From assembly GCA_023213195.1 (NCBI GenBank), contig CP096135.1:404923-468922 (forward strand): DNA of 64,000 nucleotides. Reading direction: 5' to 3'. Shown one piece after another: positions 23,366 through 62,813 of this stretch. The notes beneath the pieces were generated by a model that was given only the letters and a program-made list of their open reading frames with translations, was not told where the DNA came from and did not search any database. A program made the position numbers and the translations under genes. Position 1 is the first letter of the stretch. Every line of letters starts with the position of its first letter. The stretch is from Sphingobacteriales bacterium JAD_PAG50586_3. GTDB lineage: Bacteria > Bacteroidota > Bacteroidia > CAMBQF01.

Positions 23366-26300
23366 TTACTTGCGGCCGGTTTGTTTCCATGGGCTTTGAG
23401 CAGGTTGCGTAGCCTTAGGTACTACTTTTTGCACAGGCGCAGTTGCAGGCTTAGTAGCAGGTGCTGTAGCCGGTTGGGTAGCCGGTGCGGTAGTTGCAGG
23501 CTTGGCAGCACTGCGTGGCTGTGTAGAGTTGGCGTTTTTACTTGCCACTTCTTTAGCCTTTTTAGCAGCTGCTCTGTTTGCATCATCAGCCAAGCTTTCA
23601 GCCTCTAGTTTATCAGCTTTAGCTTTGCGGTTAGCCATTTCAACTTTCTTGTTGTTGGCATTATCTGCAGCGTTGGCTTTTATAGTAGCACCATCGGGCA
23701 CTTTAGGTGCATTAGTTTTAGCATTTTCTATTATTTGGCTAATAGCAGTTTTGCCTGTAGCCGGGGTGGCGCTGCGTGGGCTTATTAAAGCGCTTTGACC
23801 TTTAGATTTTGGTTGACCGTAAACCTGAGGGTACAAATACGTTCCTTTAAGCGGAGCTGGTTTTTCTACTTCAGGCACTACACGGTTTGCATTGGCATAG
23901 GGGTCTTGACGTATGCCTGTAATTTGCCAGCTAACTTTTACGTTGGGCTTATCGGTTTGTATAACAAAGGTATTACCATCTAACTCTTTAGCAACAATGG
24001 CTTGGGCAAAAGTGCCCATAGCGGTAAGCTGGTAGCGGAAATCTTTGTTAAGTGTAGAGAAGTAATCGGGCATGGTAACTGTTGCAAAACCGTTAGCATC
24101 GGTTACAATGTTACCATTGTAAACGTTCATCATATCGGGGCTTTCAACAAAGCTGTGGTATAGGTATTTGTTTTCGGGATCTAGGGGATGGTCTATTTTA
24201 AATGTACCACCACCCTTGGCAAGGTTGCCCAATACATCAACATCGCCATCAAAGTAGCCTGCATAACCAAACACAGAATTTCCTGATCCGGAATACTCTC
24301 CATAAACACCAATAGTAGCCAGCGGCGACCCTGCTGCTTCGTCTGCAACGCCATAAACACCAAAGTTATCAGCATTAGCAACTGGAGAGTAGGCATAGCC
24401 CGCCGAACCAATAGCTGAAGTACCTCCGGAAGATTGATTAAAACTACCGTAAGTATTTATACCTAGCCCTGCAGCATTATCAACAGAGTTTAGAACAGCG
24501 GTTGATCCGCTAGGAAAGTTAGCATTAAATTGAGTAGTTACATTAGCATTAACAACAGTATTGTAGGTTGCTACGGGGCCGTTGGCATTAACAAAAATAC
24601 CGGCAGCATTTAACTCATTAAACCCGGGACCGCTAATCTCGCTATATACACCAATATTAGAGCTAAAATCAAAATCGGTAACTAAGTTGTTGTAAGTACC
24701 ATAAGATGTAGACGAATCGCCAGAGAATATTACATTGTTATCGCCATAAGTAACGTTGTTATTGCCGGCATTTGCAAGAAATATTTTGTTGCTTCCGTAG
24801 GTAACGTTATTACCGCCACCTAAAAATACGGTTGCCTCGTTTACTGCTATGCTATTACCTGATGTAGCAAAAATATTATTTCTATTACCTAATATAGTAC
24901 TGTTGTTATTAGTAAAGTAAACATTATCGGTACCCAATAAAGAGTTATTATCTCCGGTAGTAGACAATGCTGCACGGTTAGCAGTAATTGTGCTATTAAG
25001 CCCACTAAATAAACTAAAGTTATTACCATCTATAGTAGAATTGTCGCCTACAAAAATACTAGCGTCGTTTAGTTGCGCATCTGATGCGATACCGAAATCA
25101 ATAAACGTTGAAAAAGACCTTACAAGAGCACTATCAACAGCTCTAAACTCATTGTCTATACCGTATATTTGGTTGTTAGGGCTGCTATCAAACAACTCTA
25201 TATCGTTGAAGATGCCTTTAAATACAGAATTGTTTCCATCAATATCGTTATAAAAGCCCCAAACTTCAGAACTGTCGCCATTAATATCACCGTCTAAACC
25301 ATAAATTCGGTTTCCGTTATTGATATCAAAATCAAAGCCTTTTTGGCGGTCTTGATTATCACCAACAAACATAGCCAGGTCGAAACCAACAGCTGTTCCA
25401 CTGGCACCTCCGTTAGTAGATAATTCAATGCCTACTAAATCAGAATTATCTCCACCATTAACATTAACACCTATACCGTAGTAGTTATTATCTTTAAAGC
25501 TAGGGTTATCTACCCTTAAACCATAATAACCACCGGTAAACTCACCACCTATACCATAATAATCGCCGGTAAACGAAGTACCTTCAACAGCAATAATATC
25601 ACTGATAGTAGACGAGTCAGGGTCTAGCTGTGGCCCTGTGTAAACAAAAGAACCAATAGTGGGGATGTTACTGTTTAATGTAAAAGTTGTATCTGAAGTA
25701 GCCCTAAATATATAGTCGTTATTTTTATTACGATAGAACACTTCCATTTGCGATGCTGCGGGCTGAGCGTTAGTGCCTATGCCAAAATTGCCATTTACAC
25801 CCACACGGGCAGCTTCTGTGTTATTAGTGCGGAAAACCAAGTCTTCTCCATCTAAGGTACCAATAAAGTTTATAGAGTCGTTAGTGGCGGCATTGCCTGT
25901 GGTTAACCAACCGTTAGATACAGCAGCAACGGTGTCGGGTTGCCATGATGCAAAACCGTTAGCGTCTGATTTTAGAACATAACCAACAGCCTCGTTACCA
26001 TCGGTATAACGGAAAGAGCCGTTAACATCTAGCTTAGCTTGTGGTAGTTGATTGTTAATACCAACAAAGCCACTGTCTGGGGTTATTACCATCTCAAAAT
26101 TTGGATTTTGGTCAACCCCGGCATCAAAAACCAAAGTTTTAGGAACTAAACCAGAGAAACTGGCACGGCCAATAACCGCATCTAAGCCGGTACTATCGTT
26201 TATAAAGAAGAAGGCTGAGTATGAGGTATTAGTATCTGGCCTGTTTTGCAGCACAAATGTGTTTGCAACCCCACCTTGGAAATAACCGGTTGTAGAAAAC

Positions 26301-28903
26301 GCATTGGTATCAACCACACTTAGTTTAGCTAAAAATGGGTTGGTAGTGCCAATGCCAACATTACCGTTAGTAGAGTAGCGGGCAACTTCGTTATTGTTAG
26401 TACGAACAACAAAATCAATAGAGTCTGTAGTACCAATAAAATTAGTAGAAGCATCAGTACCGGCATTGCCTGTAGTTAGCCAAGAACCTGAAACAGTGCC
26501 TGCAGGTTGCCATGTAGCATTACCGTTAGCGTCTGATGTAAGTACATAGCCAGCTGCCTGGGTACCATCTTCTAAACGGAATGTACCATTTAAATGCAAT
26601 GTTGCCGTAGGGTTAGTAGTACCAATACCAACACCATTGCCATTGTCAAATATTTGAGAGTCGCCTAACGTTTGTCCATCAGGGGTAAACTTAGGAATGT
26701 AGTTAAGAGTGCCGTTTATATTAGCCGCACCGGTTGGGCCGGTAACGCCTGTAGCACCTGTTGAGCCTGTTACACCAACTCCAGTAGGACCTGTTGGGCC
26801 TGTTGCACCATCAAGACCGTTTAATCCATTTATACCGTTTGTACCGTTAGCTCCGGTTGGGCCGGTTTCGCCTGTTGCACCTGTAGCACCTGTTGCGCCA
26901 TCAAGACCGTTTATGCCGTTTGTGCCATTAGTGCCTGATGGGCCTGTTACACCAACTCCAGTAGGACCTGTTGGGCCTGTTGCGCCATCAAGGCCGTTTA
27001 TACCGTTTGTGCCGTTAGCACCTGTTGGGCCTACTGGGCCCTGTGCACCTACGCCTACTTTATGTCCGTTAAAATAACCCGAGAAAATAGTTAGGGTACT
27101 TAATGTTGTATTGTTAACCTCTACAGTTACAACATCGCCTGCTGTAAGTTGTACATCGGCCGATAAATCTAATGCCTGAAGAGCACCACCGCTGCTATAA
27201 TTGGTGGTACTTTGGTTTACCGTAACTCCGTTATTTTTCAAATAAGTAATCACTCCACCTACCCCACCGGTAAACGCATCAATTTCTACATCAAAGTGAT
27301 ACAATCCGGTTTCTGTGCAAGTAAATTCGCCTGTGCCATTATTAAATAGTGCGCCTTCTATATAAACAGTTGTTGGGAATAGTATAGTTGTAGTAGAATT
27401 TGAATTTACGGTAGAAATAGCTGCCGTAGCTTTAAAATCGGCGTTACTGCCTGCCGGGCCTGCAGGGCCTGTTGGGCCAGTTACGCCTACACCTGTAGGA
27501 CCGGTTACACCAACACCTGTTGGACCAGTTGCGCCTTGTAAACCAACACCTGTTGGGCCGGTTGGGCCGGTTTCGCCTGTTGCACCATCAACACCGTTTA
27601 TACCGTTAGCGCCTGATGGGCCTGTTGGGCCGGTTTCGCCTGTTGCACCTGTAGCACCTGTAGCGCCATCAAGACCGTTTATGCCGTTTGTGCCATTAGC
27701 GCCTGATGGTCCTGTTACACCAACTCCCGTAGGACCTGTTGGGCCTGTTGCGCCATCAAGGCCGTTTAATCCATTTATACCGTTTGTACCGTTAGCTCCG
27801 GTTGGGCCGGTTTCGCCTGTTGCACCTGTTGGGCCTGTTGCGCCATCAAGGCCGTTTAATCCATTTATACCGTTTGTACCGTTAGCTCCGGTTGGGCCGG
27901 TTTCGCCTGTTGCACCTGTTGGGCCTGTAGCACCATCAAGGCCGTTTGTACCGTTTGTGCCATTAGTGCCTGATGGGCCTGTTACACCAACTCCAGTAGG
28001 ACCTGTTGGGCCTGTTGCGCCATCAAGGCCGTTTAATCCATTTATACCGTTTGTACCATTAGCGCCTGTTGGACCTTGTGGGCCTTGAATACCCTGTAGA
28101 CCGGTTGCTCCGGTAGCACCTGTTGCTCCGTCAAGACCGTTTACACCATTAGCGCCCGTTGGGCCTTGTGGGCCTTGAATACCCTGTAGACCGGTTGCTC
28201 CGGTAGCACCTGTTACTCCGTTTATTCCGTTTGTGCCATTAGCTCCGGTTGGGCCTTGTAAGCCTTGTGGGCCTTGTGCACCTGTTGCGCCTGTAGCACC
28301 GTTCAATCCATTTGTACCGTTAGCTCCGGTTGGGCCTTGTAAGCCTTGAGGGCCTGTTAAACCCTGAACTCCTTGCGGGCCTGTTGGACCCTGGGTGCCT
28401 TGGGGACCTTGAATTCCCTGCGCACCTGTTGGGCCGGTTAAGCCGTTAGTACCGTTTGTTCCGGCAGGGCCGGTTATACCTTGTGGACCTGTTGGGCCTG
28501 CCGGGCTATTATTAGCATACAGCGCGTAGGGTACACTTATTAGTTCTGATACGCCAGCTACCGTATAGGTAGTGCCGCCCGTAGGGTCAATCTCGGTTCG
28601 GATGTATTTGCTGCCGCTGCCCCAGGCTATAGAAGCAAAATTGCCGCTTGTTACCGTACCATCGCCCACCTTTAGGTTGAATAAACCAAAGGGGTTGGTG
28701 GTTAAACTGTGGGTTTCCTGATACACAATGGTACCTCCGGGAGAGCCATCAACTATACTTAACCGAACGCCAATGGGTTGGTTAGGCAGTTCTGCTCCCG
28801 ATGGGTTACGGGCAATTGCCTGGTAATTAAATTTTTGCGGGGCTTGTGCGTTTGCGCTCAAAGCAAAGAACACAATACTGAATATCAGTATTAGTTTTTT
28901 CAT
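23366..28903 (-). CDS. 1845-aa collagen-like fibre protein (fibre 4)
   Basis: Signal peptide; NYQAIARN...SVPYALYA N-domain; two Gly-X-Y tracts around a C1q-like domain; GIGTTNP tail-fibre-like repeats; [14 protein letters not shown]-domain; Lys/Ala/Pro tail; no T9SS CTD. Confidence 0.85.
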
Positions 28904-31202: not shown

Positions 31203-32068
31203 CTAAATTGATAGTACGCTACCACTAATGGTAGTGTCTTCTTTGGGGTTAACGCACATAACAGGTATCTGGGCATCGTTAGAAACTATACGTTGGTCAT
31301 CAGGTCCTAACACATACGATGCCAAATCGTCTCGGCCTACCTGTGTCATAATAACAATAAGGTCGGCATTTTTGCTAGATGCAAAGCGTATAACCTGGCG
31401 GGCATAGTCGCCACCTTCATCATCGTGCGTTACGGTGTATTCAACGTTGTTTTTCTTAAAAAGCTTTCGGCAAAGGCCAAGTTGTTGCTTACATGCTTAG
31501 CAAGGAACTCGTCTTTTTCTTCTTTAACAAACAGGTGGAATGTAGCGCCAAAGTTTTTACCTAAGTAAACTGCCCAAGGTAGCTTTGCTTTGGTTTCTGC
31601 TGTAAGGTCTAACGGAAGTACAATGTTTTTAAAGCCCTGCGCCGGTAGCGGTTTTTGCTGCACCACTACAAACGGTGCGCTAGAGCTGGTAATAACACGT
31701 ATAGCACGGCTGCCGGTAATAAACTGCAGGCCTTTAACACCGTGTGTGCCCATTACCACTAAGTTGGTATCAAGCTCGTCGGCGGTTTCGCCAATCATTT
31801 CAAAAATGCTGCCACGCTTAATTAGGGCTGTAGCTTTGGCGCCTTTGGCAGTAATACCCGCGGCAATAGCATTAAGTTTTTCTAAAGATTCCTGCTCATC
31901 TTTCTCTACGCTGCTTTTAGACTCTAACAAACCTGCCTCTACAATGTGCAGCAGGTAAATCTCGTTATGAAACAGTTTGGCAAGTTCAATTGCATAGTTT
32001 ACGGCACTATCAGCAACGGCTGAAAAGTCGTGGGGCACTAAAATGATACTTCTTTTTTTATCGCTCAT
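31203..32068 (-). CDS. Universal stress protein (tandem Usp domains), frameshift near 31455
   Basis: ILVPHDFS, LVVMGTHG, IVLPLDL; corrected C-terminus ...ADLIVIMT...NDAQIPVMCVNP. Confidence 0.88.
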
Positions 32069-32099
32069 GGTTTTTTCAAAAAGGTTTGGCAAATCTATG

Positions 32100-33713
32100 T
32101 TATTTCTTTAAAAACTTAAGTGTTACAAGAGAATTTGATGCAGTATCGGCCATTCTTACAATGTATAAGCCGGCAGAAAGCGCATCGGTATTAAATGTGT
32201 TGGCACCCATAGCGGCGTTGCCACTTATAACCATGCGGCCCATAGCATCAAACACCTGTAGCGTGTAGGCTTTGTTGCCGGTGTTATAAATTACCAACTC
32301 TCCCTCTACCGGGTTTGGAGCAAGTACAATGCCGTTTTCTTTAGCATCTTCTGTTAGGCCAACAGTGCAGCTTACCAGGTTAATATTGGCATAGGCACCT
32401 GCTACACCAATGTTGCCAATATATTCTACAGCAGCAGCCCAGTTTGCGGGGTTGCTGTTGTCTGATGTTGAATTGCACAAGGTGATAGAAGCACCATCGC
32501 CGGCGGCGCCAAGTGGCCATGGGGCAACGTTGCTGTAGGTAAGCGAGTCTATAACATCGCCAACGGTATTTACAATTTGCAGCTTTTCGCCGGTGTTAGC
32601 CAGGTTTCCTGTGTATTGGTAAGAATCAAAGCTGAAGAAATTATCGGCAGTAGACGGAAATGCAGAAATGTATAAGAAACCACCCGGTGCAATAGTATCG
32701 GGCGGAAAGGTAAACGTTACCCCCGATGTAAATTTGTAGCCACCAATATACGCAGCCGATGACCCACGGTTGTAAAGCTCTATAAACTCGTAATCGTCAG
32801 AGCTGGGGTTGTCATACATAATCTCGGTAATCTGCAAATCGGCAATGGTGTTGTTGTATATAAAGTTGAATGATTGTGGTTGAGCCATAGCAGTGTTTAG
32901 CAAGTCTTCAACATTGGCAATGGTAAGCGTGTACTGAACACCGTTAGCCAACGGTTGCGCAAGGGTCAGGGTAATGGTAGTTTGGGGTACGTCGCGCGTA
33001 GCGGTGTTAATTTGGCCAAGGCCGGTGTAGTTGGCTACGTTTTCGGCAGTGGTATTCACAGCTTCGTTAAAAAGCACAGTAACCGTTGTTGGGCTTGTAG
33101 CCGTAACGGTTGCAACTACCGGGGGCGATGTTGCGGCGCAGCCTGCACCGGGGGTGCCGTATACCTGCAAGCCATTTATTTGCTGGTTGCCTGTTGGGGT
33201 GGTAGCAATAGACCAGTTAGAACCTATGGAGTTATCGGTTTGAAAATCGCAAAACTCTATAGACGGGCCGCCGCCGTTTGGCGATGGTGTGCCCTGTGGC
33301 CATGGCGCGCTGTTACTGCGGTAAGGCACAAAGTCTATAAGGTTGTTAAAGCTATCGTACAAGCGCAGGGTATCGCCGCCGCTGTTGTTAAGCGCCTGGG
33401 CATAATCGTAAGCTGCAAAGCCGTAAAAGCTTAAAAACGCGGCAGAATCTGTAGCCACAACAATATATTGGCCGGGGGCTATGGTAATGTTGGGGAAGGT
33501 AAACTCTACCCCTGTTTGCAATGTCCAACCGTTTAGGTTGATGGTGCTGCCACCGTAGTTGGTTATTTCCAAATACTCCAAGGTGTCGGTATTAGCCTCG
33601 GGCGGATTAAACATAATTTCAGAAATAGCTACCTGGGGTAGTGAGCCCTGCGGCGTTTGGCCAAAGGCACCTAACGATAACAGTAACGACAGTAACAGTA
33701 AATATCTTTTCAT
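32100..33713 (-). CDS. T9SS substrate with two lamin-tail domains and an Ig-like domain
   Basis: ISEIMFNP...EYLEITN and ITEIMYDNP...EFIELYN repeats; TVLFNEAV Ig-like segment; LAPNP...LSAGLY CTD. Confidence 0.85.
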   Translation of the reverse strand: MKRYLLLLSLLLSLGAFGQTPQGSLPQVAISEIMFNPPEANTDTLEYLEITNYGGSTINLNGWTLQTGVEFTFPNITIAPGQYIVVATDSAAFLSFYGFAAYDYAQALNNSGGDTLRLYDSFNNLIDFVPYRSNSAPWPQGTPSPNGGGPSIEFCDFQTDNSIGSNWSIATTPTGNQQINGLQVYGTPGAGCAATSPPVVATVTATSPTTVTVLFNEAVNTTAENVANYTGLGQINTATRDVPQTTITLTLAQPLANGVQYTLTIANVEDLLNTAMAQPQSFNFIYNNTIADLQITEIMYDNPSSDDYEFIELYNRGSSAAYIGGYKFTSGVTFTFPPDTIAPGGFLYISAFPSTADNFFSFDSYQYTGNLANTGEKLQIVNTVGDVIDSLTYSNVAPWPLGAAGDGASITLCNSTSDNSNPANWAAAVEYIGNIGVAGAYANINLVSCTVGLTEDAKENGIVLAPNPVEGELVIYNTGNKAYTLQVFDAMGRMVISGNAAMGANTFNTDALSAGLYIVRMADTASNSLVTLKFLKK

Positions 33714-34008
33714 ATACAAAGTAGTTTGTAGCGCAAATATAGGGTTAGACTGTGTCTCTTTTTATAGTTTAACGCATTTATAATAATTGATTAATAAGTG
33801 TTTATACAATTAACATCCTTTTTAATAAAAAGTGTAATTATTTGTACACAATTTATAAAGGCCAATACACTCATTTTCAATATATGATAAATTATGGCAC
33901 TTGTGTAATGAACAATAGCGGTTATTAATTTGGGGCAGGTTTGTTAAACCAATCAAAAAAAATAAATATACTTTTACCGCAGTATTAACCTATATAAAAA
34001 ACTACTGT

Positions 34009-34380
34009 ATGAACAAAAAAATGATTGGTTTAGCATTCTCAATACTAATGATTGTAGGTGCTTTTTTACCTTGGGCTAAGGTTGAATTCCTTGGTGTTTC
34101 AAAGTCAATGAACGGCTTTATGGGCGAAATGGGTGGTAACCCCGGCGCACTTATTGTTCTGTTAGGTGCACTTAGTGCCCTGTTTATTTTCTTAGATAAA
34201 AAATGGTCAAACATTGTTGCCATTATTTTTGGTTTGTTGGGTACCCTTTGGGGCCTAAAGCAAATGAACGATGTTAAAGACATTGGCATGGTTACCGTTG
34301 GTATTGGCATTTACTTGATTATTGTTTCGGGTATTGGTGTTGTAATAGGCGCCGTAATGAACATGCGCAAAACCGCATAA
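34009..34380 (+). CDS. Small four-TM membrane protein
   Basis: GAFLPW motif, four hydrophobic segments. Confidence 0.7.
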   Translation: MNKKMIGLAFSILMIVGAFLPWAKVEFLGVSKSMNGFMGEMGGNPGALIVLLGALSALFIFLDKKWSNIVAIIFGLLGTLWGLKQMNDVKDIGMVTVGIGIYLIIVSGIGVVIGAVMNMRKTA

Positions 34381-34410
34381 CTTTTACTTTTTTTCGTTTA
34401 AAGAACATTG

Positions 34411-34880
34411 AACCCCTGCCCAAAAGGCGGGGGTTTTGTTTTTTGGTACTCTATAGTCAAGGAGTTAATATCCACCTATAACCTTTCTTTTAATTACTTT
34501 TTGCTTGTCCAAAAAGTAACCAAAAAAGACACCACGCCCAAAAACACTGCAATTTTGCTCTCGCACTTCCCGACGACTGCGTGTCGGGACAAGGCCAAAC
34601 CGCACTAATTGCCATGCAAAATTTTGTGTTCACACCGGGCGTGGACTACCCACCGCACTTTATTCTGGATATAAACCCATCCCTCTCTCCGGATTCCGAT
34701 AAATCGGGACATGAGTACTCCCCCTTTGCAGCCTTGCCCAAAAGGCGGGGGTTTTGTTTTTACCTCACCACTAATAGCTTTGACAGGGAGGGTTGCTGAC
34801 CTAACAACAGACCTAAATATAACCCACCCCCTCCCTCCCGCCTATGGCGTGAGTACTCCCCTTTGCAGGGGGAGAGCCTT
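34411..34880 (+). repeat. Palindromic-element cluster bracketed by a 27-bp direct repeat
   Basis: TGCCCAAAAGGCGGGGGTTTTGTTTTT exact at 34417-34443 and 34735-34761; internal TTACTTTTTG...CAAAAAGTAA and CCCGAC...GTCGGG hairpins. Confidence 0.75.
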
Positions 34881-34913
34881 TATTATGATTTTCTTTCTAC
34901 TTTTAACCCATTA

Positions 34914-35903
34914 ATGAAAAAGCAAGGCAACCATAGCGCAGAGGAGTTTTTACCGGGATAACTGCGGGCAACCGGGTTATGCTGGGGCAAGCCATAACGC
35001 TATGCGAGAGTACCTTGCCAGAACACCGCGCCCTTGCGCTTGAAGTGCTTAAACTATGCCTGCCGCAAGCGGGCAACGCTATAAGGGTAGGTATTACCGG
35101 TGTGCCGGGTGTGGGCAAAAGCACGTTTATAGAAAGCCTGGGCATGTACCTTACCGGCAAAGGCCATAAGGTAGCGGTGCTGGCGGTAGACCCCAGCAGC
35201 AGCCGCACCGGTGGTAGCATTTTGGGCGATAAAACCAGAATGGAAGAACTATCGGCCAACCCCAAAGCCTTTATACGCCCGTCGCCATCATCGGGCAACT
35301 TAGGTGGGGTAGCCTCTAAAACACGGGAGTGTATTTTACTTTGCGAAGCCGCGGGGTACGATGTTATATTGATTGAAACCGTTGGCGTAGGCCAAAGCGA
35401 AACGGAGGTTAAAAGCATGACCGACTTTTTTTACTGCTGATGCTTGCCGGTGCGGGTGATGAGTTGCAGGGCATTAAGCGGGGCATTATGGAAATGGCCG
35501 ATGGGGTAGCTATAAACAAGGCCGATGGCGACAACCTGGAAAAAGCCAAAATGGCCCGTACAGAATATGCACGGGCGCTGCACATGTTTCCGCCCGACGA
35601 TGCCGGTTGGTCTGCCCCTGTAGAACTGTGTTCTGCCACAGAAAAAACAGGTATTGATGCCGTGTGGAATATGGTTGTCAAGCATAAAGAAATGCTGATT
35701 GCCAAAAACTTGTTTGACCAACGCCGCAGCCAGCAGCGCCTTAACTGGTTTGAAAAACTGCTGGGCGAACAGTTGCTGGAAGCGTTCAATAACAATGAGT
35801 TAATAGAAAATAGTTTGCCGGCTATCAAAAACAAAGTGGTAAGTGGCGAAATGCTACCCCCGAAGCCACCCTTACACTAATTAAAACTTTTATAAATAGA
35901 TAA
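34914..35903 (+). CDS. meaB: Methylmalonyl-CoA mutase-associated GTPase, frameshifts near 34950, 35432 and 35860
   Basis: [52 protein letters not shown]. Confidence 0.92.
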
Positions 35904-35969
35904 GTTGTTTGTTTGTGTATTTAAAAAAACATACTTTTAGGGTTTGGTATTGGATATTCTTAAACATCT

Positions 35970-38263
35970 ATGAAACGTTTACTCATCGTTCTTGCTGTTC
36001 TTGGAACAGTAACAGGGCTTTCGGCCCAATGCACAACTACTAACGCCACAAACTGTGTATGCGCCACACAGGGGCAAACAAACTGCGACTTACTACCTGA
36101 CCTTCAGGCATCGTGGAAAGGTTTGCTGGATAGTGACGAGTACCCGCAGACGGGTGCAGGCACCAACTATCAAAACCAGGGTCCAGACGATGGACGCTTA
36201 CGCATATCTGTATCATCGCCCAACGTGGGCTACGGTTCTTTTACCGTGCGCGGCAGCAACTGGTATGTTTGTGGTACAGACACTTTCCAGTCGGGCACTA
36301 ACCCGGGCAATTGCCCTGATGGAACACCGCCACGCAACCTTATCACGCAACGTATATACCACAAAAATGGTAATACAATGACGTATACCGACCGTTGGTC
36401 GGGCAGTATGACTTACCACCCATCGCATGGACACAACCACGTTGACGATTGGTCGTTTTACACCCTTCGTATTAAAGACCCGCAAGAGCCAGACCCACGC
36501 AAGTGGCCTTTGGTAGGCAAGGGGTCTAAAATGGGCTTTTGCTTAATGGATTATTACGCTTGCTCTAACAACAACGCAAACGGCCACTGCCGTACAGACA
36601 ATACTGTATACAACCAAGGCACAGCCCTTAACAGCAACAGCAACTTTCCTAACTACGGTTTAGGCGGCGGCCAATACAATTGCTCTCCGGTAGAACAAGG
36701 TATTTCTTCGGGCTGGACAGATGTTTATTACAAAAACCTGGACATGATGTGGATTAACATCCCCCCGGCGTTTGTAACGGCGATTACTGGATTGTTGTAG
36801 AGGTAGACCCACGCAATTATTTCTTAGAGTCTAACGAAGATAATAACTGGACAGCGATACCTATTACATTAACCCAACAAAGTGCCCCGGGTACAGGTGC
36901 TTTTGCTTCTATAACATCAGACAAACCAGCCAATATTTGCCAAGGCGACAGCATTAAGCTTACCTGCAACGCGGGTTCTGAAATGATTTGGAGCAATGGC
37001 GATACCACACAAAGCATTTATGTTAAAGACCCAGGCGATTATACTGTTACCGTTACTAACTATTGCGGCACTGCCACATCGCAAGTATTTTCTGTTACCG
37101 TAGGCGCAGCAGGTACAGCACCTGTAGTAGCTGATGTTTCTATTTGTGCACCGGGTACTGCTACCATTATGGGCGACCCAACGTATGAGTGGTATGATGA
37201 TGCTAACGCAACCAACCTTGTGGGTACAGGTAACTTTACCACCCCATTTTTAAATGACGATGCAACTTTTTATGTACGCGATGTAACGCCATTACCTACC
37301 AGCACGTATTTTGCTGAACCACATAGCGAAGAATTTGGTGGCAATGCTACCAGCACATCTGACCAATACCTTATTTTTGATGCCGTTAGCCCATTCACTT
37401 TAAAAAGTGTATTGGTTAATGCAGGCGCAGCCGGTACACGCAAAGTTTACCTGCGCGATTATTCTGGCGTTGCATTAGACTCTGTATCTGTTAACCTGCC
37501 TGCAGGCCCAAGCCGCATAACGTTAAACTTTGATGTACCATCGGGCAACGATTTTCGTTTAGGCATTGGCTCTACCCGCAACCTATACCGCAACAGCGCG
37601 GGTGTTAACTACCCATACCAAATACCGGGTATACTTAGCATTAAAAACTCATCGGCAGGCAACCAGTACTACTACTGGTACTACGATTGGGAAGTGGAAG
37701 CACAAGGTAATACATGTGTTACTCCGTTAGCTCCTGTTACTGTTACTGTTGGTAGCAACGTTATACCTACCATTAGCGGCCTTGGCGCTACCTACGAAAA
37801 TACCGACGCCCCTGTTACCCTTGTGGGTACCCCTGCAGGCGGCACATTTAGCGGCACCGGTGTTACCGGCAACACGTTTGACCCTGCCCTTGCTGGCATT
37901 GGTGGCCCATACACTATTACTTATACTTACACTGCAGATGGTTGCACCACCAGCAATACTGCCAGCGTTACCGTTACAGAGGCTGTTGGTGTTAACGAGG
38001 TTACCGACCTTAAAGCCCCTATACAGGTTTACCCTAACCCTAGCAACGGCACGTTTACCTTAACGTTTGAAACCAAGAAACAACACAGCATGCGTATTAA
38101 CGTTACCGACCTTGCAGGCCGTGTTATATGGAGCGAAAACGTATCTAGCTTTACCGGTAAATACAGCCGCAACTTTAGCAACGGTGGCCTGGCTGCCGGT
38201 GTGTATATGCTAAATGTTATGATTGGCGACCAAACCAGCACGCGTAAGCTTGTGGTTAACTAG
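35970..38263 (+). CDS. Lysyl oxidase-family protein with Ig-like domains and T9SS CTD, one frameshift in the C-run near 36762
   Basis: LLPDL, YHPSHGHNH, GSKMGFCLMD, QGISSGWTDVY; corrected frame continues PPGVCNGDYWIVVEVDPRNYFLESNEDNN into the 36983 ORF; VYPNP CTD. Confidence 0.85.
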
Positions 38264-38359
38264 TATTCAGAGGTCAGTAGTCAGGGGTCAGTAATAAGAC
38301 TATTGCCACATTATATTTAAACCCTCATCAGCAATGGTGGGGGTTTTGTTTTACCAACT

Positions 38360-38412
38360 ATCCCCTAAAATAGGGGAGTACGTCCCGGTAGCAATCGGGA
38401 CGGGAGGGGGTA
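38360..38412 (+). repeat. Family A palindromic element
   Basis: TCCCCTA-AAA-TAGGGGA followed by GTCCCG...CGGGAC and GGGAGGGGG. Confidence 0.7.
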
Positions 38413-38456
38413 TAAATATCCTATATGTGTTATTTGTTTTTGTTACCTTTATAATA

Positions 38457-39413
38457 ATGAAACGCCTGCTATTAATAATTGCCTTTGGGTTTTGCACTTA
38501 TATTAACAAAGCACAAACCTATGTTCCTTTCCCAACATCAACAGATAATGCTGTATGGAATATTTCTTCATCGTCGCACGAAGGGACATGTCGATTTTAT
38601 GATTTATTTATTACGGGCGACACAACAATACATAACAAAAGCTACGTAAAGCTAGGGTTTCGTGGCATTATTTATCTATGGAACCCCGATATGGAACCTT
38701 GGTGCAGTGGTGTAGCCCCTGCTTACTCTTTTAGTACAAAACGATACGCATACCGAGAAGATTCAACCCATAAAATATATTTTCGTTCAATTAGTCACCC
38801 AATATATGATACAACAGAGTTTTTACTATTTGATTTTGGTATGCAGGTTGGCGATAGTTTAAAAGGCTATTTTTCACAACAAAATTTTGGTATAATACCA
38901 ATTGTATCCAGTATTGATTCTATTCAAATTGACAATAATTGGCGTAAGAAATTTAACTTCAAAAACGGTTTTGATACCCTAGAAGGTTGTTTTTACCTAA
39001 TAGAGGGGATAGGCACTAATATGGGTTTTTTAGATATACAAGGTTGTCCATTTTTTGAAAGTTCGACAACATTAAATTGCTTTAAACGGTATGAGGTAGT
39101 TATTTGGAATAATAGTAATTCCAGTTGTAGCGATTACAGCTTTATTAATTCAAACAAAGAGAACCTGCTAAATAATTTACATATAGCAATATACCCAAAC
39201 CCTGCACAAGATTTTGTGAATATAGAACTACCCCAAAGCTATAACCAAGCCAGCCTTAATATTTATAACCTAACAGGTCAGCTAATTTCTCAAAAGCCAA
39301 TAACATCAACCCAAATACCTATTGCAGAGTTGGGTAATGGTATGTACATCTTTGTCATTCAAAATGGAGATAAGGTTATAGGCAGGCAGCGGGTGGTAGT
39401 GGTAGCGAGGTAG
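38457..39413 (+). CDS. T9SS type A substrate of unknown function (AT-rich)
   Basis: Signal peptide from ATG 38457, YVPFP start, LIEGIG motif, IYPNP...LGNGMY CTD. Confidence 0.8.
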   Translation: MKRLLLIIAFGFCTYINKAQTYVPFPTSTDNAVWNISSSSHEGTCRFYDLFITGDTTIHNKSYVKLGFRGIIYLWNPDMEPWCSGVAPAYSFSTKRYAYREDSTHKIYFRSISHPIYDTTEFLLFDFGMQVGDSLKGYFSQQNFGIIPIVSSIDSIQIDNNWRKKFNFKNGFDTLEGCFYLIEGIGTNMGFLDIQGCPFFESSTTLNCFKRYEVVIWNNSNSSCSDYSFINSNKENLLNNLHIAIYPNPAQDFVNIELPQSYNQASLNIYNLTGQLISQKPITSTQIPIAELGNGMYIFVIQNGDKVIGRQRVVVVAR

Positions 39414-39419
39414 GGTCTT

Positions 39420-39700
39420 GCTATTTCACCTCTCCCCCGACAATCCAATAAATTGTATTGCCTTTCCCCCTCTCCCGTGGTGAGAGGGGGCTACATTTCA
39501 TAAATCCTATTTATCATATTGGTGGACAAAGGTGTATTGAGGGTTAGAGCCTCAACCCCAGCCCCCTTTTAGGCACCAACTGACGACTTGTGTCAGGATT
39601 TACAACCCTAGGGAAACAATACACACTCCTTTATTCTACTTTGGGGTAGTTACCACAAAACTCCCCGCCCTTCGGGCACCCCCTCTTGGAGGGGAATTTA
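39420..39700 (+). repeat. Palindromic-element cluster upstream of the orphan promoter
   Basis: 39428-39475 duplicates 40207-40252; 39660-39696 matches 39828-39866 and, inverted, 49978-50017. Confidence 0.7.
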
Positions 39701-39736
39701 TTTAAGTACATTTTATTAACAATATTTATTTTTTAC

Positions 39737-39788
39737 TTGACAAATGGAGATTAAATGTTGTATCTTTGTGGTGTTATTCGAATAGCAC
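39737..39788 (+). promoter_or_regulatory. Orphan promoter plus palindromic operator-like site, pointing into array 2
   Basis: TTGACAAA-TGGAGATTAAAT-GTTGTATCTTTGT, then GTGTTATTC-GAATAGCAC (39771-39788, one mismatch). Confidence 0.7.
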
Positions 39789-39799
39789 AATATTAATAG

Positions 39800-40680
39800 T
39801 AAAAAAACAAAAAACTGCCGCGGCAAACCTCCCCCGCCCTAAAGGGCACCCCCTCTATGAGGGGGACAAATAAGGGACAGTACCTACAATGCTTATTACG
39901 ATTCAGAATGATGGTTTAATGATGGCCCCACCCCAAACCCCTCCCCCAAGGAGAGGGGCTTAAAAAAGGCCTTTAGAATTTAAGAGAAATAATTTAACAA
40001 GAGGACAAGCTTCGCAATGGCTAAGACCAGCCGAGCTTTTATAGCGGTGCCATTGGTCAGTTGGTAAATTGTTATGATAAGTGTTTGTCACCAATAGGTG
40101 GTTTGCGAAAGCGGGCTGCCTAAAGGTGTTTCATGCCTTCGGCAAACTAAAAACGAAAAGTAAAAAATGAAAAATAACTTTATCGGCTACTGCCTGCGGA
40201 GATTTAACCTCTCCCTGACAATCCAACAAGTTGTATTGTCTTTCCCCTCTCCAACGCGTGGAGAGGGGTGGCTGAAAGCCGGGGTGAGGTACCCGCAAAA
40301 TAACCTCATCAGCTACTGCCTGTAGGTGTGTAGTAACCACCCAATTCTGACTTATACAGTCAGAATTACCCCTCCTTAAAAAGGAGGGGAGTTAAAATAA
40401 TGAGCCGCGAAAACGAGTGCATTAGCAACATGCTGTAAGGGTTTGGTGTATCCCGAGATCCCGCATCAAGTGCGGGATGACAATCGTAGCAAAAGGGTGA
40501 GCAGAAATGATGTGGTTTGCTACTGCTTGTAGTACCTCCCCTGCCCCCTCCTAAATTTAGGAGGGGGTGGCGCGGCGAGTGCCGGGGTGAGGTATCCCCC
40601 GACGATGAATGTCGGGATGCTACAAAAGTGGCACGCGAAAACGAGTGTATTAACTACTGCCTGTAGGGGTTGGGGGCAAA
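39800..40680 (+). repeat. Palindrome-cassette array 2
   Basis: (G/A)CTACTGCYTGTAG-like motif at 40186, 40312, 40425 (degenerate), 40519, 40653; each interval holds a different hairpin. Confidence 0.75.
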
Positions 40681-40681
40681 C

Positions 40682-40711
40682 AAAAATCCCCGCCGAAGGG
40701 CGGGGATTTTT
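40682..40711. terminator. Bidirectional terminator
   Basis: AAAAATCCCCGCC-GAAG-GGCGGGGATTTTT. Confidence 0.8.
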
Positions 40712-40757
40712 AAATATGTGTATCAGTGTGTGAATACTGACCTCTGATTACTGACTA

Positions 40758-41876: not shown

Positions 41877-41917
41877 TTTTGTTTGTTAGATGATAGGTAT
41901 ATAAATACAAATATAAT

Positions 41918-41957
41918 AAAAAAGGCGGTTTCCGTGTATACAACGAAACCGCCTTTT
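41918..41957. terminator. Intrinsic terminator
   Basis: AAAAGGCGGTTTC/GAAACCGCCTTTT. Confidence 0.75.
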
Positions 41958-41986
41958 AAAAGTATTGTAATGCGCTATAACGTAAA

Positions 41987-55313: not shown

Positions 55314-55580
55314 CTAATTAGTCTTTTTTGCGCCCGCAGCCTTGTTTTTTCGCTTTGAAGCAGGGGCTAATGGAGGATTAGTTGCCGGCGTTGCTTTGTC
55401 TGCCTGTTTATTGGCCGCACCCGGCTTGTACGCAGCCATTTGGGGCTTATTAGTCCCCACAACCGGCTGGGCTTTTGTATTGCCTAATTTGCCTGTAGCC
55501 ATTGCGGGTGCGTTGCTTTGTGCATTTGCTGCTATGCAGCCTAACAGCACAATAGTATATGTTAAAACTATCTTCTTCAT
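55314..55580 (-). CDS. Small secreted Lys/Ala/Pro-rich low-complexity protein
   Basis: Signal peptide ...AANA-Q; starts 9 nt after the fibre 3 stop. Confidence 0.7.
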   Translation of the reverse strand: MKKIVLTYTIVLLGCIAANAQSNAPAMATGKLGNTKAQPVVGTNKPQMAAYKPGAANKQADKATPATNPPLAPASKRKNKAAGAKKTN

Positions 55581-55589
55581 ACCTACAGA

Positions 55590-56770
55590 TTATTGTACAA
55601 ATGCGCTTATGGTGCCGTGGTGGCCGGTTTCGGTAGCTGTGTATATACCTATGCCGGGTGTGCCAGATATAGCTGCTACGCGGTACTGCACCGTAACGGT
55701 GTTAGCTACGTTAGCATTTACTGTTACCTTTTTTGTAAATGCCGCGCTCCAGGGGCTTGTACCATCGCCTGTAAAGGAGTCTAATATAGAAACCTTCTCG
55801 CTTGTGCCACCGGCTGAAACACCGTTTACCAACACCCTAAATTCTACAAAAGACATACCATCGGCATACCCAAAACCAGCAGCGGTAAAGTTTAAGAAGG
55901 CTGTAGTTTGTGTGGGTGTAAACGTAATGCTTAGGCCCGGCACGTTGGTATAGGCCGCGGCAACAAGGGTTTGGTCGCCGGTAACAGATGATGATACAAT
56001 ATTTACACCGCCTGTGCCCGGAGCGCCTGTAGCACCTGTTGCACCGGGGGTTCCGTTAGCGCCAGTAGCGCCATTAGCACCCGAAGGGCCTGCAGGGCCC
56101 GTATTGCCATTTAAGCCCGCAGGACCTGTTGGCCCAGCTGAGCCTGTAGAGCCTGTTGCACCCGTAGCACCAGCTACGCCATTGTTACCTGTAGGGCCGG
56201 TAGGGCCTGTTGCTCCACCGCCGGGTCCTGTTGGGCCGGTTGGACCGGTTGCACCACCACCCGGGCCTGTTGGGCCGGGGGCACCATTAGCACCTGCGGG
56301 GCCTGTAGCACCGGGAGCGCCCGCTGGGCCTGCAGGACCTGTTGGGCCGGGGTTTGTAGAGCTGCCTGAGTATAGCGCATACGGTACAGACCATAATTGC
56401 ATAGTACCCATATCTATATACCCCGTACCGGGGTTAGCTTCAATTTTTGCAAAATGGTTAGAGCTGCCCCAGGGGATAGCGCTTAGCGTGTTAAACGGAC
56501 CGGTAACAAATGTACCTGGCCTATAACCATATCAAACAACCCAAATTGGTTAGTGGTTACGGTATGTGTTTCTTGAAACTGCGGTGTGCCGTTTATTGCG
56601 ATTAGAATAGATACACGGATGGTTAGCGTATTGTTAGATAGTATGCTACCCGAGTTGTCGCGGGCAACGGCCTGGTAATTAATACCCGGAGGTGGTGCCA
56701 CTTGGGCAAATGCCACATTGCACAACAATAGGCCAGCAGCAATAACAAGTTGTTTAACTAGTTTTTTCAT
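55590..56770 (-). CDS. Collagen-like fibre protein 3 with BclA/C1q-like tip, frameshift near 56515
   Basis: ATG 56770 signal peptide; NYQAVARD...SVPYALYS N-domain; GPT/GAT collagen; [10 protein letters not shown] tip. Confidence 0.85.
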
Positions 56771-56842
56771 GGTTTTTTTAAATATGATTGCCGTAAATGT
56801 AGGATTAACGGGGCATAGAAACAATATTGGTGTAATAAAAAT

Positions 56843-56877
56843 AAAAAGCCCCCTGACTTTTATGGTCAAGGGGCTTT
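56843..56877. terminator. Intrinsic terminator after fibre 2
   Basis: AAAGCCCC(C)TGAC/GTCAAGGGGCTTT. Confidence 0.7.
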
Positions 56878-56898: not shown

Positions 56899-59713
56899 TT
56901 ATGGCTTAACTATAAGAATGTTAATTCGTAAGTTTTGTGTTACAGAGTTAGTCTCGTCTAGGAATATCTCAAACGATGTTGTGGTAAGATTCCTGATAAT
57001 AGGCGATTCAAAATCATTATCATCGTCAGCATTGCCTAAGCTGGTAAACGATAGCATTGGAATATACGTTGTAGTGCCTTGGTCGGCAAAGTTAACGGTA
57101 ATGGTAGACCTGCCGCTATTGTTAGTTTTTGTTGCTGATGTAATGCCACCTGCTACGGTAACAGCAGTACCTGCATTAATATCAGAAATAAGAACAGTAC
57201 CTGCAACAGTTTGAATAGCAGGGCCTGTTGGGCCTTGGGCACCTTGTGGACCTGCTACACCCTGAATGCCTTGAGCACCTTGTGGGCCTACTGCACCATC
57301 GTTACCTGTTGGGCCAATTGGACCTTGAGCACCGGCAGGGCCGGCAACACCTTGTGGGCCTTGGGCACCGGCAGGGCCTTGCGGACCAACTGCACCATCG
57401 TTACCGGTTGGGCCTTGCAAACCTTGTATGCCTTGTATACCCTGTATACCTTGTGGGCCTTGAGCGCCTTGTGAGCCTTGAGCACCAGAAAGGTTGCTAA
57501 CTACTATGCGTGAGCCCGGAAATGCGGTTTGGAAATTAATATCTACAGGATTAGAAACATCGTTGTGCCAAACATATATTTCAAAATACTCGCCGTTTTG
57601 TAATACTATATTAAAGTTAACGCTACTTGCGGGCACATCAGTATCTGGGCCGTCAAAACTTAAAATACCATAACGGTCGGTAAAAACGTTACCATTTTTT
57701 GCACCAAAGGCATAGCGGCCTGTTCCGGGAGTAGGCAATGCGCTCCAGGTTATAAATGATGATACATTTAAAACCAACACATCGCCACTGGTATTGATAA
57801 ATTTAGAAGCTCCATCGTATGTTAATCCGCTTACTCCGTTAGAGTTAGCAGCATCCAAATTCTCCCAAAAAACAGGGGTATCAATGCCATCTGCAATACC
57901 TTGTGGGGTAACATTAGCGTAAGCTAAAGTAGCAGCTGTACCAACGGGGGCTGCAGGGCCTGTAGGACCTGTAACACCAACACCTGTTGGGCCTGTTGGG
58001 CCAGTAACACCATCGGCACCATTAGCACCGTTGCTTCCTGTTGGGCCGGTTGGGCCTGTTGCGCCATCGGCACCGTTAGCGCCGTTAGCACCATTATTTC
58101 CTGTAACACCTGTTGGGCCTGTTACACCATTAGCACCATCGTTACCTGTTGGACCTGTAGGGCCGGTTACTGATGGTAAAGGTTGCCATGTAGCAACACC
58201 CTGGTTGTTAGACGATGTTAATACATAACCCGTTTGTGCACCTTGTGGAAGAACTACATTGTTACCAAAGAAAACATTATCGCGGGTAAAGAAACCCCAG
58301 TAGCGTTGTTGCGCATCGCTATAAGCCATAAAAGCCAAAGTAGGGCCACTGTCGCCATTGTTTAAACGGCCAACAACACCTGCACTGTTAGCAAAATCGC
58401 CATAGTTGCCACCGTAAACACCGGCGCTGTAGTTGTTGCCATACCAAGAGTAACCTTTAATAGCAGCATCAACACCACGTACAGCCCAGCTAGAGCCACC
58501 ATCAGTTTCGTTAAAAGAACCCTGGCGGTAAGCAAATATATTTGAGTGACCATCACCAAAATCAGTACCCGGACGCTCAACATAAACGCGTGTTTTGTCA
58601 GCACCACGTACTACTGCAGGTTGATCTGGGTTTACTACGTTTACTTTTACAACGCCTTCTACCATTAAACCATTTACAGGTGCGGCAGAGTTAGCAAAGT
58701 TTTGACCAATAGAAACATTACCACCAACGCTAAGTTTACTTGCAGGGGTAACGTTGCCAATGCCAACATTAGCGCCGTTGTTGTAGATATTGCTGCTGGT
58801 TGTTACCCATGCAGAACCATTCCAATAAGGAGTATCACCAGCTGAGTCGCCATCTTGTAATAAACCTGTTGGGCCTGTTACACCTGTTGCTCCATCAGCA
58901 CCGGCAGGGCCTTGTGGGCCTACTGCACCATCGTTACCAGTTGCACCTTGTGGGCCAGCTGGGCCTTGGGCACCGGCAGGGCCTTGTGGACCTACCGCAC
59001 CGTCGTTACCTGTTACACCTTGTGGACCAGCAGGGCCTTGAGCGCCGGCAGGGCCTTGTGGGCCTACCGCACCGTCGTTACCTGTTGCACCTTGTGGGCC
59101 TTGTGGACCAGGGTCGCCTTGCGCACCGGTAGCACCATTAGCACCGGCAGGGCCTTGCGGACCTACGCTACCTGTTACACCTTGTGTGCCTTGTGGGCCT
59201 TGAATACCTTGTGGACCTGTTGGGCCTACCGCACCATTGGCACCGTTAGCACCGTTTATACCTGTTGGGCCTTGCGGACCTGTTGGGCCTTGGCTACCGC
59301 CACCAGAGTTACCAGCATAAATAGCGTAAGGAACGCTGATTAACTGGCTTGTACCTGCTACTGTGTATGCGTTACCGCCGGTAGGGTCAATCTCTGTTTT
59401 AATGTATTTTGCACCGCTACCCCAGCCAATGTTGGTAAAGGTGCCTGTTACTACAGAACCTGTACCAACTTCAAGGTTAAATAAACCGTAGTTGTTGGTG
59501 GTTTTGGTGTGGGTTTCCTGATACACTACTGTGCCACCGGGAGAAGCATCTAAAATGCTGATACGGATGCCAATTGCCTTAGCCCGTTATCTCTGCTCCA
59601 CCAGCATTGCGTGCAATGGCCTGGTAGTTAAATTTTTGTGGCGCCTGCGCGTTCACAACAAAAGCAAATAGCATAAGCAACACTATTGCTTTTAATGATT
59701 TGGAGATGTTCAT
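56899..59713 (-). CDS. Collagen-like fibre protein 2, frameshift near 59580
   Basis: Manual start [36 protein letters not shown] at 59713; three collagen tracts; NVGIG tail-fibre-like segment; C1q-like middle domain; small beta-rich tip. Confidence 0.85.
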
Positions 59714-60713: not shown

Positions 60714-62813
60714 TTACCATGAAATAATTACTAAACCATTACCAGTGTTGTAACCACCGGTGTAAGTAATGCCAGATGAACCTGATGGGGTTACATAGCT
60801 GCTACCGCCGCCGCCGCCGGCATAAGCACCTGCGCCGCCACCGTAGTAGCCGCCACCGCCGCCACCGCCGCTGTTGCCAAAGTTAGATTGTAAGCCGTTA
60901 GCATTACCACCTTGGCCAAATGAACCAGATTCGCTTTCAAAGCCAGGGTATGTAGAACCAGAACCTGGGCCAGACTGTGTAGCACCACCACCATTAAATT
61001 CAATAATGCCAGTACATTCAACACCATCAAGACCTGCAGGGTAGCCACCGTTACCGCCATCGCTACCGGTACCGTCAAAGCAGTTAAAGCCTGCACCGCC
61101 ACCACCACCGGCAACAACAAGACGGTCGTTTAGTGTGTTTCCGGCAGTTCTGATATCAGAAGCGCCGCCGCCGCCGCCGCCTTGAAGGAAATTGGAACCA
61201 TTATTAAAGGTTTCAGCATCGCCACCACCATTGTAGCCCGGAGTTAATGGTGCACCTTTGCCACCAACGTAAACGTTTAATATTTGGCCCGGTGTTACAG
61301 TTAAAGTAGCTTGAGTACGGCCACCAGCACCCGGGATGTTTGTATTAGGGTCTCCACCTGCATTGCCACCACCTGCAGCAATAACATCAACAACAATAGA
61401 TGTTATACCCGCCGGTACAGTAAATGTTTGAGGGGCACCGGTAAAGTTAAATGTTTGTGAACCCGGAGGGGTTGTAGTAACAATTAGGGTACCGCAGGTT
61501 GAATACCAATCGCCACCAAAATAGTAGTTAGGGCAACCTGTAGTTATGTTGAAAATATATAATCCATCAGCAGGAGATGCTATAGCATCGCGTTGAGCAT
61601 CTGTTAAACGTGGCATTAAGAAACCGCGGGTAGTAGATGTAACATCTAAAGCAGCAGAAGCAGCAGGAACAGCAGCACCTACTGAAAGTTGGTTATTGGT
61701 TTTGTCGTAAGTAAACTCACCATCAGCACCGGCAGCGCCGTTATCGTTAAAAATAACCTGCTTATCAGTACCCGCTACAGGGCCTGTAGCACCGGTTGCA
61801 CCCGGAGCACCTGGAGCACCTGGAGTTCCCGGAGCACCCGCAGGGCCAACAGGACCTTCTGCACCGGCAGGACCAACAGGACCTTGAGCACCGGCAGGAC
61901 CGGCAGGACCTTGAGCACCGGCAGGGCCAACTGGACCTTCTGCACCGGCAGGGCCAACAGGGCCTTGAGCACCGGCAGGACCGGCAGGACCTTGAGCACC
62001 GGCAGGGCCAATAGGACCTTCTGCACCGGCAGGGCCAACAGGGCCTTGAGCACCGGCAGGACCAGCAGGACCTTCTGCACCGGCAGGACCTTGAGCACCG
62101 GCAGGGCCTTGTGCACCATCAGCGCCATTAGCACCGGCAGGGCCGGCAGGGCCTTGAAGACCTTGAGGGCCTTGAGCGCCATCAGCGCCATTGGCACCGG
62201 CAGGACCTTGAGCACCATCGGCACCGGCAGGACCGGCAGGGCCTTGAGCACCATCGGCACCGGCAGGGCCTTGCGGGCCTACGCTACCTGTTACACCTTG
62301 TGGGCCTTGAATACCTTGAGGACCTGTTGGACCTACTGCGCCGTTAGCACCGTTAGCACCGTTTAAACCTGTTGGGCCTTGCGGACCTGTTGGGCCTTGG
62401 CTACCAGAGTTACCAGCGTAAAGAGCATAAGGCACGCTTATTAACTGGCTAGTGCCAGCTACAGAGTATGTGCTACCGCCTGTTGGGTCAATTTCTGTTT
62501 TAATGTATTTACCACCTGTGCCCCAGTCTATAGAAGAAAAAGTGCCTGAAACAACAGAACCTGCGCCAACTTCAAGGTTAAATAACCCGTAGTTGTTGGT
62601 AGTTTTGGTGTGGGTTTCATAGTACACTACTGTGCCACCCGGAGAGCCATCTAAAATGCTGATACGGATACCAATTGCCTGGCCCGTAAGCTCTGCTCCA
62701 CCAGCATTGCGTGCAATGGCCTGGTAGTTAAATTTTTGTGGCGCCTGCGCGTTCACAACAAAAGCAAGCAGCATAAATAATGCCAGTGCTTTTAAGGTTT
62801 TTGTGATGTTCAT
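60714..62813 (-). CDS. Collagen-like fibre protein 1 with Gly-rich tip
   Basis: Signal peptide; shared N-domain; GPA/GAQ collagen with 81-bp unit x3 (61841-62083); TTRGFLMPR segment; TFTVPAG...AAGGG...GNGLVIISW Gly-rich domain. Confidence 0.88.

Follow-up and report, generated by a model that had tools for sequence, protein, structure and literature searches.

A lysyl oxidase-family gene with a predicted surface-export tail in a Sphingobacteriales genome, and its neighbourhood

We describe a lysyl oxidase (LOX)-family gene from Sphingobacteriales bacterium JAD_PAG50586_3 (assembly GCA_023213195.1), which lies at 35970..38263 on the + strand of a 64,000-nucleotide stretch of contig CP096135.1 (positions 404,923 to 468,922; hereafter the window, whose own numbering is used throughout). 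Its product is probably a genuine LOX-family amine oxidase, exported to the cell surface through the secretion system of type IX (T9SS), with an activity that we predict from its conserved residues. The gene appears split in the window because of an assembly artefact, and its proximity to collagen-like fibre genes, in which an earlier note on this DNA had seen a possible matrix cross-linking system, is likely a matter of inherited gene order. We give this reading as a whole a probability of about 0.8. LOX has been known in Bacteroidetes since 2015 (PMC4448552), as the earlier note allowed in calling bacterial homologs known, and the window adds one further member.

LOX domain, accessory modules and export tail

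The whole gene encodes 764 aa when read through a frame change, with its stop codon at 38261-38263; it combines an open reading frame (ORF) of 276 aa at 35970..36800 (+) with a second frame that is open over 36758-38263. The earlier note had placed the gene end at 36860, which overruns the first-frame stop at 36800 and falls short of the true end at 38263. The three motifs that it quoted are all present in the first ORF, and their correspondence to the animal copper site and to the two precursors of the cofactor lysine tyrosylquinone (LTQ) holds on alignment to human LOXL2, whose residue roles we take from PMC5899467 and PMC9694262. The copper-binding His cluster YHPSHGHNH (residues 149-157; 36414..36440, +) aligns its H150, H153, H155, and H157 to LOXL2 H623, H626, H628, and H630. 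In GSKMGFCLMD (residues 185-194; 36522..36551, +), aligned to LOXL2 GHK653ASFCLED, K187 is the LTQ Lys precursor, and in QGISSGWTDVY (residues 243-253; 36696..36728, +), aligned to QGITMGCWDMY689, Y253 is the LTQ Tyr precursor as well as the fourth metal ligand in the precursor state. Beyond the frame change, the end of the domain carries ESNEDNN (36827..36847, +), whose E287, N292, and N293 align to LOXL2 E722, N727, and N728 and form the C-terminal half of the Ca2+ site. The likely N-terminal half is P43-D44-L45 (36096..36104, +), equated with LOXL2 D549/L550 by motif similarity only. The Ca2+ ligands of LOXL2 are D549, L550, E722, D724, N727, and N728 (PMC5899467); the D724 position is variable (N/D/R) in the window clade.

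Three lines of evidence agree on this assignment, so the three motifs are not chance matches. The Pfam Lysyl_oxidase profile PF01186 matches at 41.1 bits, against a gathering cut-off of 20.4 (E 2e-10), over profile positions 128-197 of 204; since only the last third of the domain is aligned, the catalytic residues were checked separately. A profile built from 26 homologs matches human LOXL2 (5ZE3) alone in the PDB, at E 6e-10 and over a span from the His cluster to the domain end, and it is this alignment that places H153/H155/H157, K187, Y253, and E287/N292/N293 in the same columns as their LOXL2 counterparts. An AlphaFold model of residues 1-312, with a predicted local distance difference test (pLDDT) score of 90.8, has 5ZE3 as its sole significant Foldseek neighbour (E 7e-7, probability 1.0), at a template modelling score of 0.45 when normalised on a query that includes the signal peptide and linker.

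The same residues are retained among relatives. Across the 26-homolog alignment H153, H155, H157, K187, C191, D194, G244, and G248 are invariant and Y253 is nearly so. We also assembled 160 related LOX loci, each taking in as much as 10 kb of flank at either end, L001-L080 being genome contigs and L081-L160 metagenome contigs. K187, Y253, C191, D251, E287, and N293 are retained in 157 of 157 related loci, H153, H155, and H157 each in 156, P43 likewise in 156, N292 in 154, and D44 in 153. By this pattern of conservation, catalysis in the clade appears clearly to be under selection.

The remainder of the protein is multi-domain. It opens with a putative Sec signal peptide, MKRLLIVLAVLGTVTGLSA (35970..36026, +), read from the sequence; by eye, MKRLLIVLAVLGTVTGLSA|QC shows a typical n-h-c region, and what follows is a conserved Q20-C21 with a Cys-rich N-terminal segment, in which alignment A2 shows little or no variation at Q20, C21, C29, C31, and C39. 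The LOX domain extends to about residue 300, the second frame resuming with GVCNGDYWIVVEVDPRNYFLESNEDNNW, the end of that domain. Next come a homolog-conserved, Cys-containing immunoglobulin (Ig)-like repeat resembling the Ig_7 domain (36900-37117, +; alignment A4) and an Ig-like domain matching Pfam Ig_7, PF19081, of the CHU_C-associated kind (residues 384-439; 37118..37285, +; E 2.4e-7). The conserved domain of ~150 residues that succeeds them (residues 444-594; 37298..37750, +; alignments A4 and A5) is modelled by AlphaFold as an all-beta sandwich at pLDDT 75; a fold search with it gave weak matches only (E about 1e-2), to PHR domains and to CBM35/36-type carbohydrate-binding modules, so that no binding specificity can be claimed. 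An extra Ig-like or linker segment (37751..38026, +; A4 columns 660-745), which has no Pfam match, is unique to the window protein in A4: none of the other eight homologs extending as far as the T9SS tail has it.

The protein ends in a T9SS type A C-terminal sorting domain (38027..38260, +), found both by PF18962 (residues 687-763, E 1.1e-12) and by the NCBIfam model TIGR04183 (E 1.4e-13). The tail comes into frame with the LOX domain only when the C-run is read through, and it is in frame in L001. The earlier note's description of a T9SS-secreted LOX homolog with a full catalytic set is thus borne out, though tail and LOX domain stand in different frames in the window. At least seven other window proteins bear a type A sorting tail, which indirectly favours the presence of T9SS machinery in the host. 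The 16 kb around LOX hold at least five further T9SS-tail proteins (32100-33719, 38334-39413, 40758-41876, 41987-42946, and 44889-48371), among which are a lamin-tail domain protein, a PCMD protein, one with three Ig_7 domains plus PKD, and two of unknown function. With such proteins so abundant here, proximity to secreted surface proteins is the regional norm and not specific to LOX.

The frame change at the C6 run

The reading frame changes in a run of six Cs at 36761-36766 (+), and the first ORF stops 34 bases past it. For comparison we used X1-X3, contigs from three independent wastewater metagenome runs that match the window at about 98-99% identity. Only four sites within 34900-38300 show a length difference between them and the window (34946, 35425, 35856, and 36760), and each is one extra letter in the contigs beside a homopolymer; 35425 is a T-run in meaB and 36760 is the LOX C-run, where all three runs have the in-frame length. 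Seven more one-letter length differences were found within 50000-64000, six of them an extra letter in the reads, and these coincide with breaks in a polyprenyl synthase gene and in two fibre genes. Overall, the window is one letter short at 10 of the 11 length differences from the three runs. Among the related loci, L001 (94% protein identity) has a single intact LOX ORF of 773 aa together with an intact meaB, and L002, in which the run at the site of the frame change is interrupted (CCCACCA), reads through, as does L081.

The break in the LOX gene is an assembly artefact, and the gene is intact in nature, because X1-X3, L001, L002, and L081 all read through and other window genes break in the same way; the earlier note had correctly judged that the gene needed correction. 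More generally, the window's assembly has systematic homopolymer undercalls, and with so many frame errors at homopolymers the split genes of this assembly should not be read as pseudogenes.

Homopolymer tracts can serve as phase switches in the surface-protein genes of some bacteria, and a C6 run does split the LOX gene in the window sequence, which is what a true pseudogene in the organism, or a gene made phase-variable by slippage of the C-run, would look like. We nevertheless consider either highly improbable: the housekeeping genes meaB and polyprenyl synthase are broken alike, the length differences run in the same direction at 10 sites of 11, the three runs are all in frame at 36760, and an interrupted run such as that of L002 would not slip. 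Programmed frameshifting was considered along with phase variation at the C-run, and both were rejected on the ground that housekeeping genes share the one-letter deficits.

The other affected genes can be listed briefly. The gene for a meaB/ArgK-type GTPase upstream of LOX (34979-35880, +) is split at a T7 run (35426-35432) where the contigs are one T longer, and L001 has an intact ORF of 342 aa. The other sites of one-letter difference are 34946, 35856, 52146, 53902, 55323, 56514, 59581, 63413, and 63515, with the window short at eight of these nine; the genes touched are that for the polyprenyl synthase (51455/52102) and two for fibres, together with the end of a small Lys-rich ORF of 91 aa. 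Further apparent splits, such as those at 7154/7474 and 11991/12865, probably have the same homopolymer cause.

Conserved and occasional neighbours of LOX

A search of 5.8 billion proteins returned 93 relatives, the best of them 60% identical and all from Bacteroidota metagenome-assembled genomes (MAGs), several being annotated as “lysyl oxidase family protein”; the 276-aa ORF had no exact-sequence match in the contig collection. Scanning one genome per species with alignment A2 found a relative in 362 species-level genomes, the best 80 of which are all Bacteroidota MAGs, and 93 further metagenome stretches hold relatives, marine TARA contigs included. A search of representatives with the broad alignment A1 gave 53,809 matches, from which no size of the LOX family is derivable since most are giant Ig-repeat proteins drawn in by the Ig_7 columns; of the 150 top-ranking representatives, about 50 are LOX plus Ig proteins of full length.

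Clustering the ORFs of the related loci revealed one recurrent neighbour, a gene of ~410 aa that starts 0-10 bases past the LOX stop on the same strand. It lies directly downstream in 57 of the 72 evaluable genome contigs (nearby in 6 more) and in 36 of the 51 evaluable metagenome contigs (elsewhere in the locus in 4 more). Thus about 80% of evaluable loci have it beside LOX, and the genes that flank the pair vary. Its product is a Reg_prop beta-propeller with a T9SS tail of its own (e.g. L013:12118-13359 and L077:12045-13301). From this arrangement, LOX and propeller look like a conserved two-gene cassette in the relatives, of which a literature search found no description, and the cassette is a more useful lead to the substrate than are the fibres. 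One locus on a complete MAG chromosome (L048:9944-15636) carries LOX, propeller, and a second LOX in tandem.

The partner combines Reg_prop repeats with a type A C-terminal sorting domain. Its sequence matches the propellers of the hybrid two-component system (HTCS) sensors 3V9F and 4A2L at E 1e-31 and 1e-27. The match to PorZ is below threshold (68-101 bits against a cut-off of 260), and the partner has one propeller of about 300 aa as against two in PorZ. We considered whether the window protein encoded in the partner's usual place downstream of LOX (38334..39413) could be a divergent propeller and rejected it as unrelated, the T9SS tail being all that the two have in common.

The window also holds four genes, all on the - strand, for proteins with collagen-like Gly-X-Y tracts: 23366..28903, 55590..56875 (itself split), 56899..59586, and 60714..62813. 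Their tracts contain 0 Lys in 1,023 residues, which agrees with the earlier note's remark that Lys is almost absent from them. The Lys-rich segments to which it pointed are there as well: the final 80 residues of the 23366..28903 protein are rich in Lys, Ala, Pro, and Thr, and the fibre cluster holds two small Lys-rich ORFs, of which the 91-aa ORF at 55314..55589 (-) is 14% Lys. This ORF begins with a lipoprotein-like signal (LLGC), and the one-letter assembly error at 55323 alters its last codons, so that its true C-terminus differs from the window reading. The fibre genes (55314-63376 on the - strand, and 23366-28903) share an N-domain (QKFNYQA...) and differ in their C-terminal tips, which include C1q and ALK/LTK Gly-rich types; the cluster alternates with two small T9SS-tail proteins of 175-179 aa and with the two Lys-rich ORFs. 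No T9SS tail was detected in the fibre proteins themselves, and NCBIfam gives a weak match to the N-domain of a Bdellovibrio mosaic adhesive trimer. Judged from these sequences, the fibres resemble adhesive trimers of chimeric build whose tips vary, and with a shared N-domain, varied tips, and the weak trimer match, adhesive fibres fit better than a cross-linked matrix.

The nearest collagen-like gene is 7 kb away from LOX, and the three others are at 20-27 kb. As the earlier note had said, LOX and fibre genes are not adjacent; those between LOX and the nearest fibre are mostly on the opposite strand and encode a cytochrome P450, an AstE/AspA-like protein, a lamin-tail T9SS protein, MeaB, and small uncharacterised products. 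Among the related loci, a collagen tract of at least 7 Gly-X-Y repeats occurs in 0 of the 80 best genome loci (1.23 Mb; 34 of them reaching 10 kb in both directions), and one of at least 8 repeats in 1 of the 80 metagenome loci, counts that are biased downward because short-read MAG contigs often break at collagen repeats. The lone positive, L081, follows the gene order of window 27576-47246 with a nucleotide identity of 72-78% and, as a collinear close relative, counts as one event of shared ancestry. A protein search with the fibre N-domain returned 48 short Bacteroidota MAG fragments sharing no locus-tag prefix with the LOX matches, a comparison of far too little power to be informative.

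Predicted activity and substrate

The proposed course of events can be set out stepwise. The LOX protein would cross the inner membrane by Sec and fold in the periplasm with disulfides and Ca2+; Cu2+ would be bound at H153/H155/H157 and Y253, and K187 and Y253 would be self-processed into LTQ. By way of the C-terminal domain, which would then be cut off, the T9SS would carry the protein over the outer membrane and leave it either exposed at the cell surface or shed from it. In this location the enzyme would oxidise primary amines (peptidyl lysine being the family default) to aldehydes, with release of H2O2 and NH3. Its Ig-like and beta-sandwich modules, joined in most relatives by the presumably co-transcribed and secreted Reg_prop propeller, would probably hold the enzyme on a polymeric or particulate target.

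The protein can be compared with two characterised relatives and with one survey. With animal LOX, and especially human LOXL2 (5ZE3; PF01186), the window protein shares the fold, the HxHxH copper site, the LTQ Lys and Tyr, the Glu/Asn/Asn of the Ca2+ site, and the cysteine of FC(L)xD; both are rich in disulfides and extracellular (by prediction for the window protein). The two are only about 17-18% identical, LOXL2 H652 and H637 are not conserved, and the window protein lacks SRCR domains and a propeptide of the LOX/LOXL1 type, having instead its own accessory domains (Ig_7 and the beta-sandwich) and T9SS export. Collagen and elastin are substrates of animal LOX; they are not established as such for the window protein. 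The enzyme of the archaeon Haloterrigena turkmenica (HTU-LOX), compared here through its publication, likewise belongs to PF01186, is prokaryotic, and shares the Cu-His and LTQ residues. In recombinant form it is an active amine oxidase sensitive to beta-aminopropionitrile (BAPN); its specificity is relaxed, extending to numerous primary amines, to aminoglycosides, and to polymyxin, and those who described it propose a part for it in nitrogen availability (PMC6452851). Since HTU-LOX is active, the same residue set suffices outside animals. It differs in being a single domain with a hydrophobic N-terminus, and it lacks a T9SS tail, Ig modules, and a propeller partner. Grau-Bove et al. 2015 placed Bacteroidetes, the phylum of the window protein, among five bacterial clades with LOX of this family, and found prokaryotic LOX to be almost all single-domain (PMC4448552). 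Unlike those, the window clade is multi-domain (about 700-780 aa), T9SS-tagged, and usually part of a propeller cassette. Our literature search on characterised bacterial or T9SS-linked LOX found nothing beyond this 2015 survey and the 2019 archaeal enzyme.

Several points weigh against the overall reading of a surface-exported LOX-family enzyme. The Pfam match reaches the C-terminal third of the domain alone. The LOXL2 H652 position, whose mutation halved LTQ formation in that enzyme (PMC9694262), is Ser or Ala in the window clade. The propeller partner is absent from the window, L001, L002, and L081, which makes the chief conserved clue from context inapplicable to the window copy. No RNA runs holding the LOX gene were found. 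For the clade itself amine oxidase activity is a prediction, the assayed prokaryotic homolog being archaeal. Finally, the downward bias of the neighbourhood count bears on the argument from gene order, yet 34 of the 80 genome loci have their whole 10-kb flank at either end.

As to what the enzyme acts on, the earlier note's suggestion was that secreted LOX oxidises the Lys-rich non-helical segments of the nearby fibres (the 23366..28903 tail and the 55314..55589 protein), cross-linking a bacterial fibre matrix much as animal LOX acts on collagen telopeptides and elastin. The window does offer four collagen-like genes whose helical tracts lack Lys and whose flanks are rich in it; the order from LOX to fibre is kept in L081, the only close relative whose upstream flank is long enough to tell; and the lineage with this arrangement is the same one that lacks the usual propeller. 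We nonetheless think the proposal quite unlikely, and it is not supported by the wider survey. Only 1 of the 160 loci has a collagen tract inside 10 kb, and this locus is a syntenic close relative that amounts to a single evolutionary event; the recurrent neighbour is the Reg_prop propeller; the genes in between have no relation to either and lie mostly on the opposite strand; the fibres have no detectable T9SS tail and resemble adhesive trimers with variable tips. Tails rich in Lys, Ala, Pro, and Thr are moreover common low-complexity linkers, and the availability of Lys beside the helices is no evidence of its use. Grau-Bove et al. 2015, the first to report bacterial LOX, had themselves raised bacterial collagen-like proteins as substrates and considered their cross-linking unlikely (PMC4448552). 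The collagen cross-linking idea is thus weakened by these comparisons, and the best account of the closeness of LOX to the fibres seems to be a gene order passed down by descent, in a genome where T9SS and surface proteins abound, instead of a dedicated collagen cross-linking system. The broader proposal, that the clade comprises surface protein-lysine oxidases gluing or cross-linking extracellular proteins through aldehydes, with the Lys-rich fibre tails as targets in the propeller-less lineage of the window, also strikes us as unlikely. If true, it would be a bacterial counterpart of animal matrix cross-linking, and cross-linking of surface or matrix proteins would bear on a pre-animal origin of LOX-based matrix chemistry.

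Somewhat more room, though still well short of an even chance, must be left for a broad-specificity extracellular amine oxidase that has no specific protein substrate and performs no cross-linking, the gain to the cell being NH3 (nitrogen from amines, peptides, or polyamines), H2O2 directed at neighbours or prey, or the inactivation of amine-bearing antibiotics. The relaxed specificity of the sole prokaryotic LOX characterised in the literature found, that of Haloterrigena (PMC6452851), favours it, as does the nature of the carriers, polymer-degrading Bacteroidota from freshwater, wastewater, and marine settings that secrete many enzymes. Against this, the conserved architecture of Ig modules, beta-sandwich, and propeller partner suggests a defined polymeric target and not soluble amines, and the neighbour clusters show no recurrent ammonium or amine transporter, aldehyde dehydrogenase, or catalase adjoining LOX. 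On the function of prokaryotic LOX, among which one archaeal enzyme has been assayed, the enzymes described here offer a better handle, as a clade that is widespread in freshwater, wastewater, and marine Bacteroidota, predicted to be exported, and usually accompanied by a fixed partner gene.

One further observation concerns the fibre cluster. Over 60741-61207 the metagenome contig depth is about 15-fold that of the flanks, with many conflicting joints; this is a Gly-rich, low-complexity part of a fibre gene, and cross-mapping from many genomes or paralogs is therefore the probable cause.

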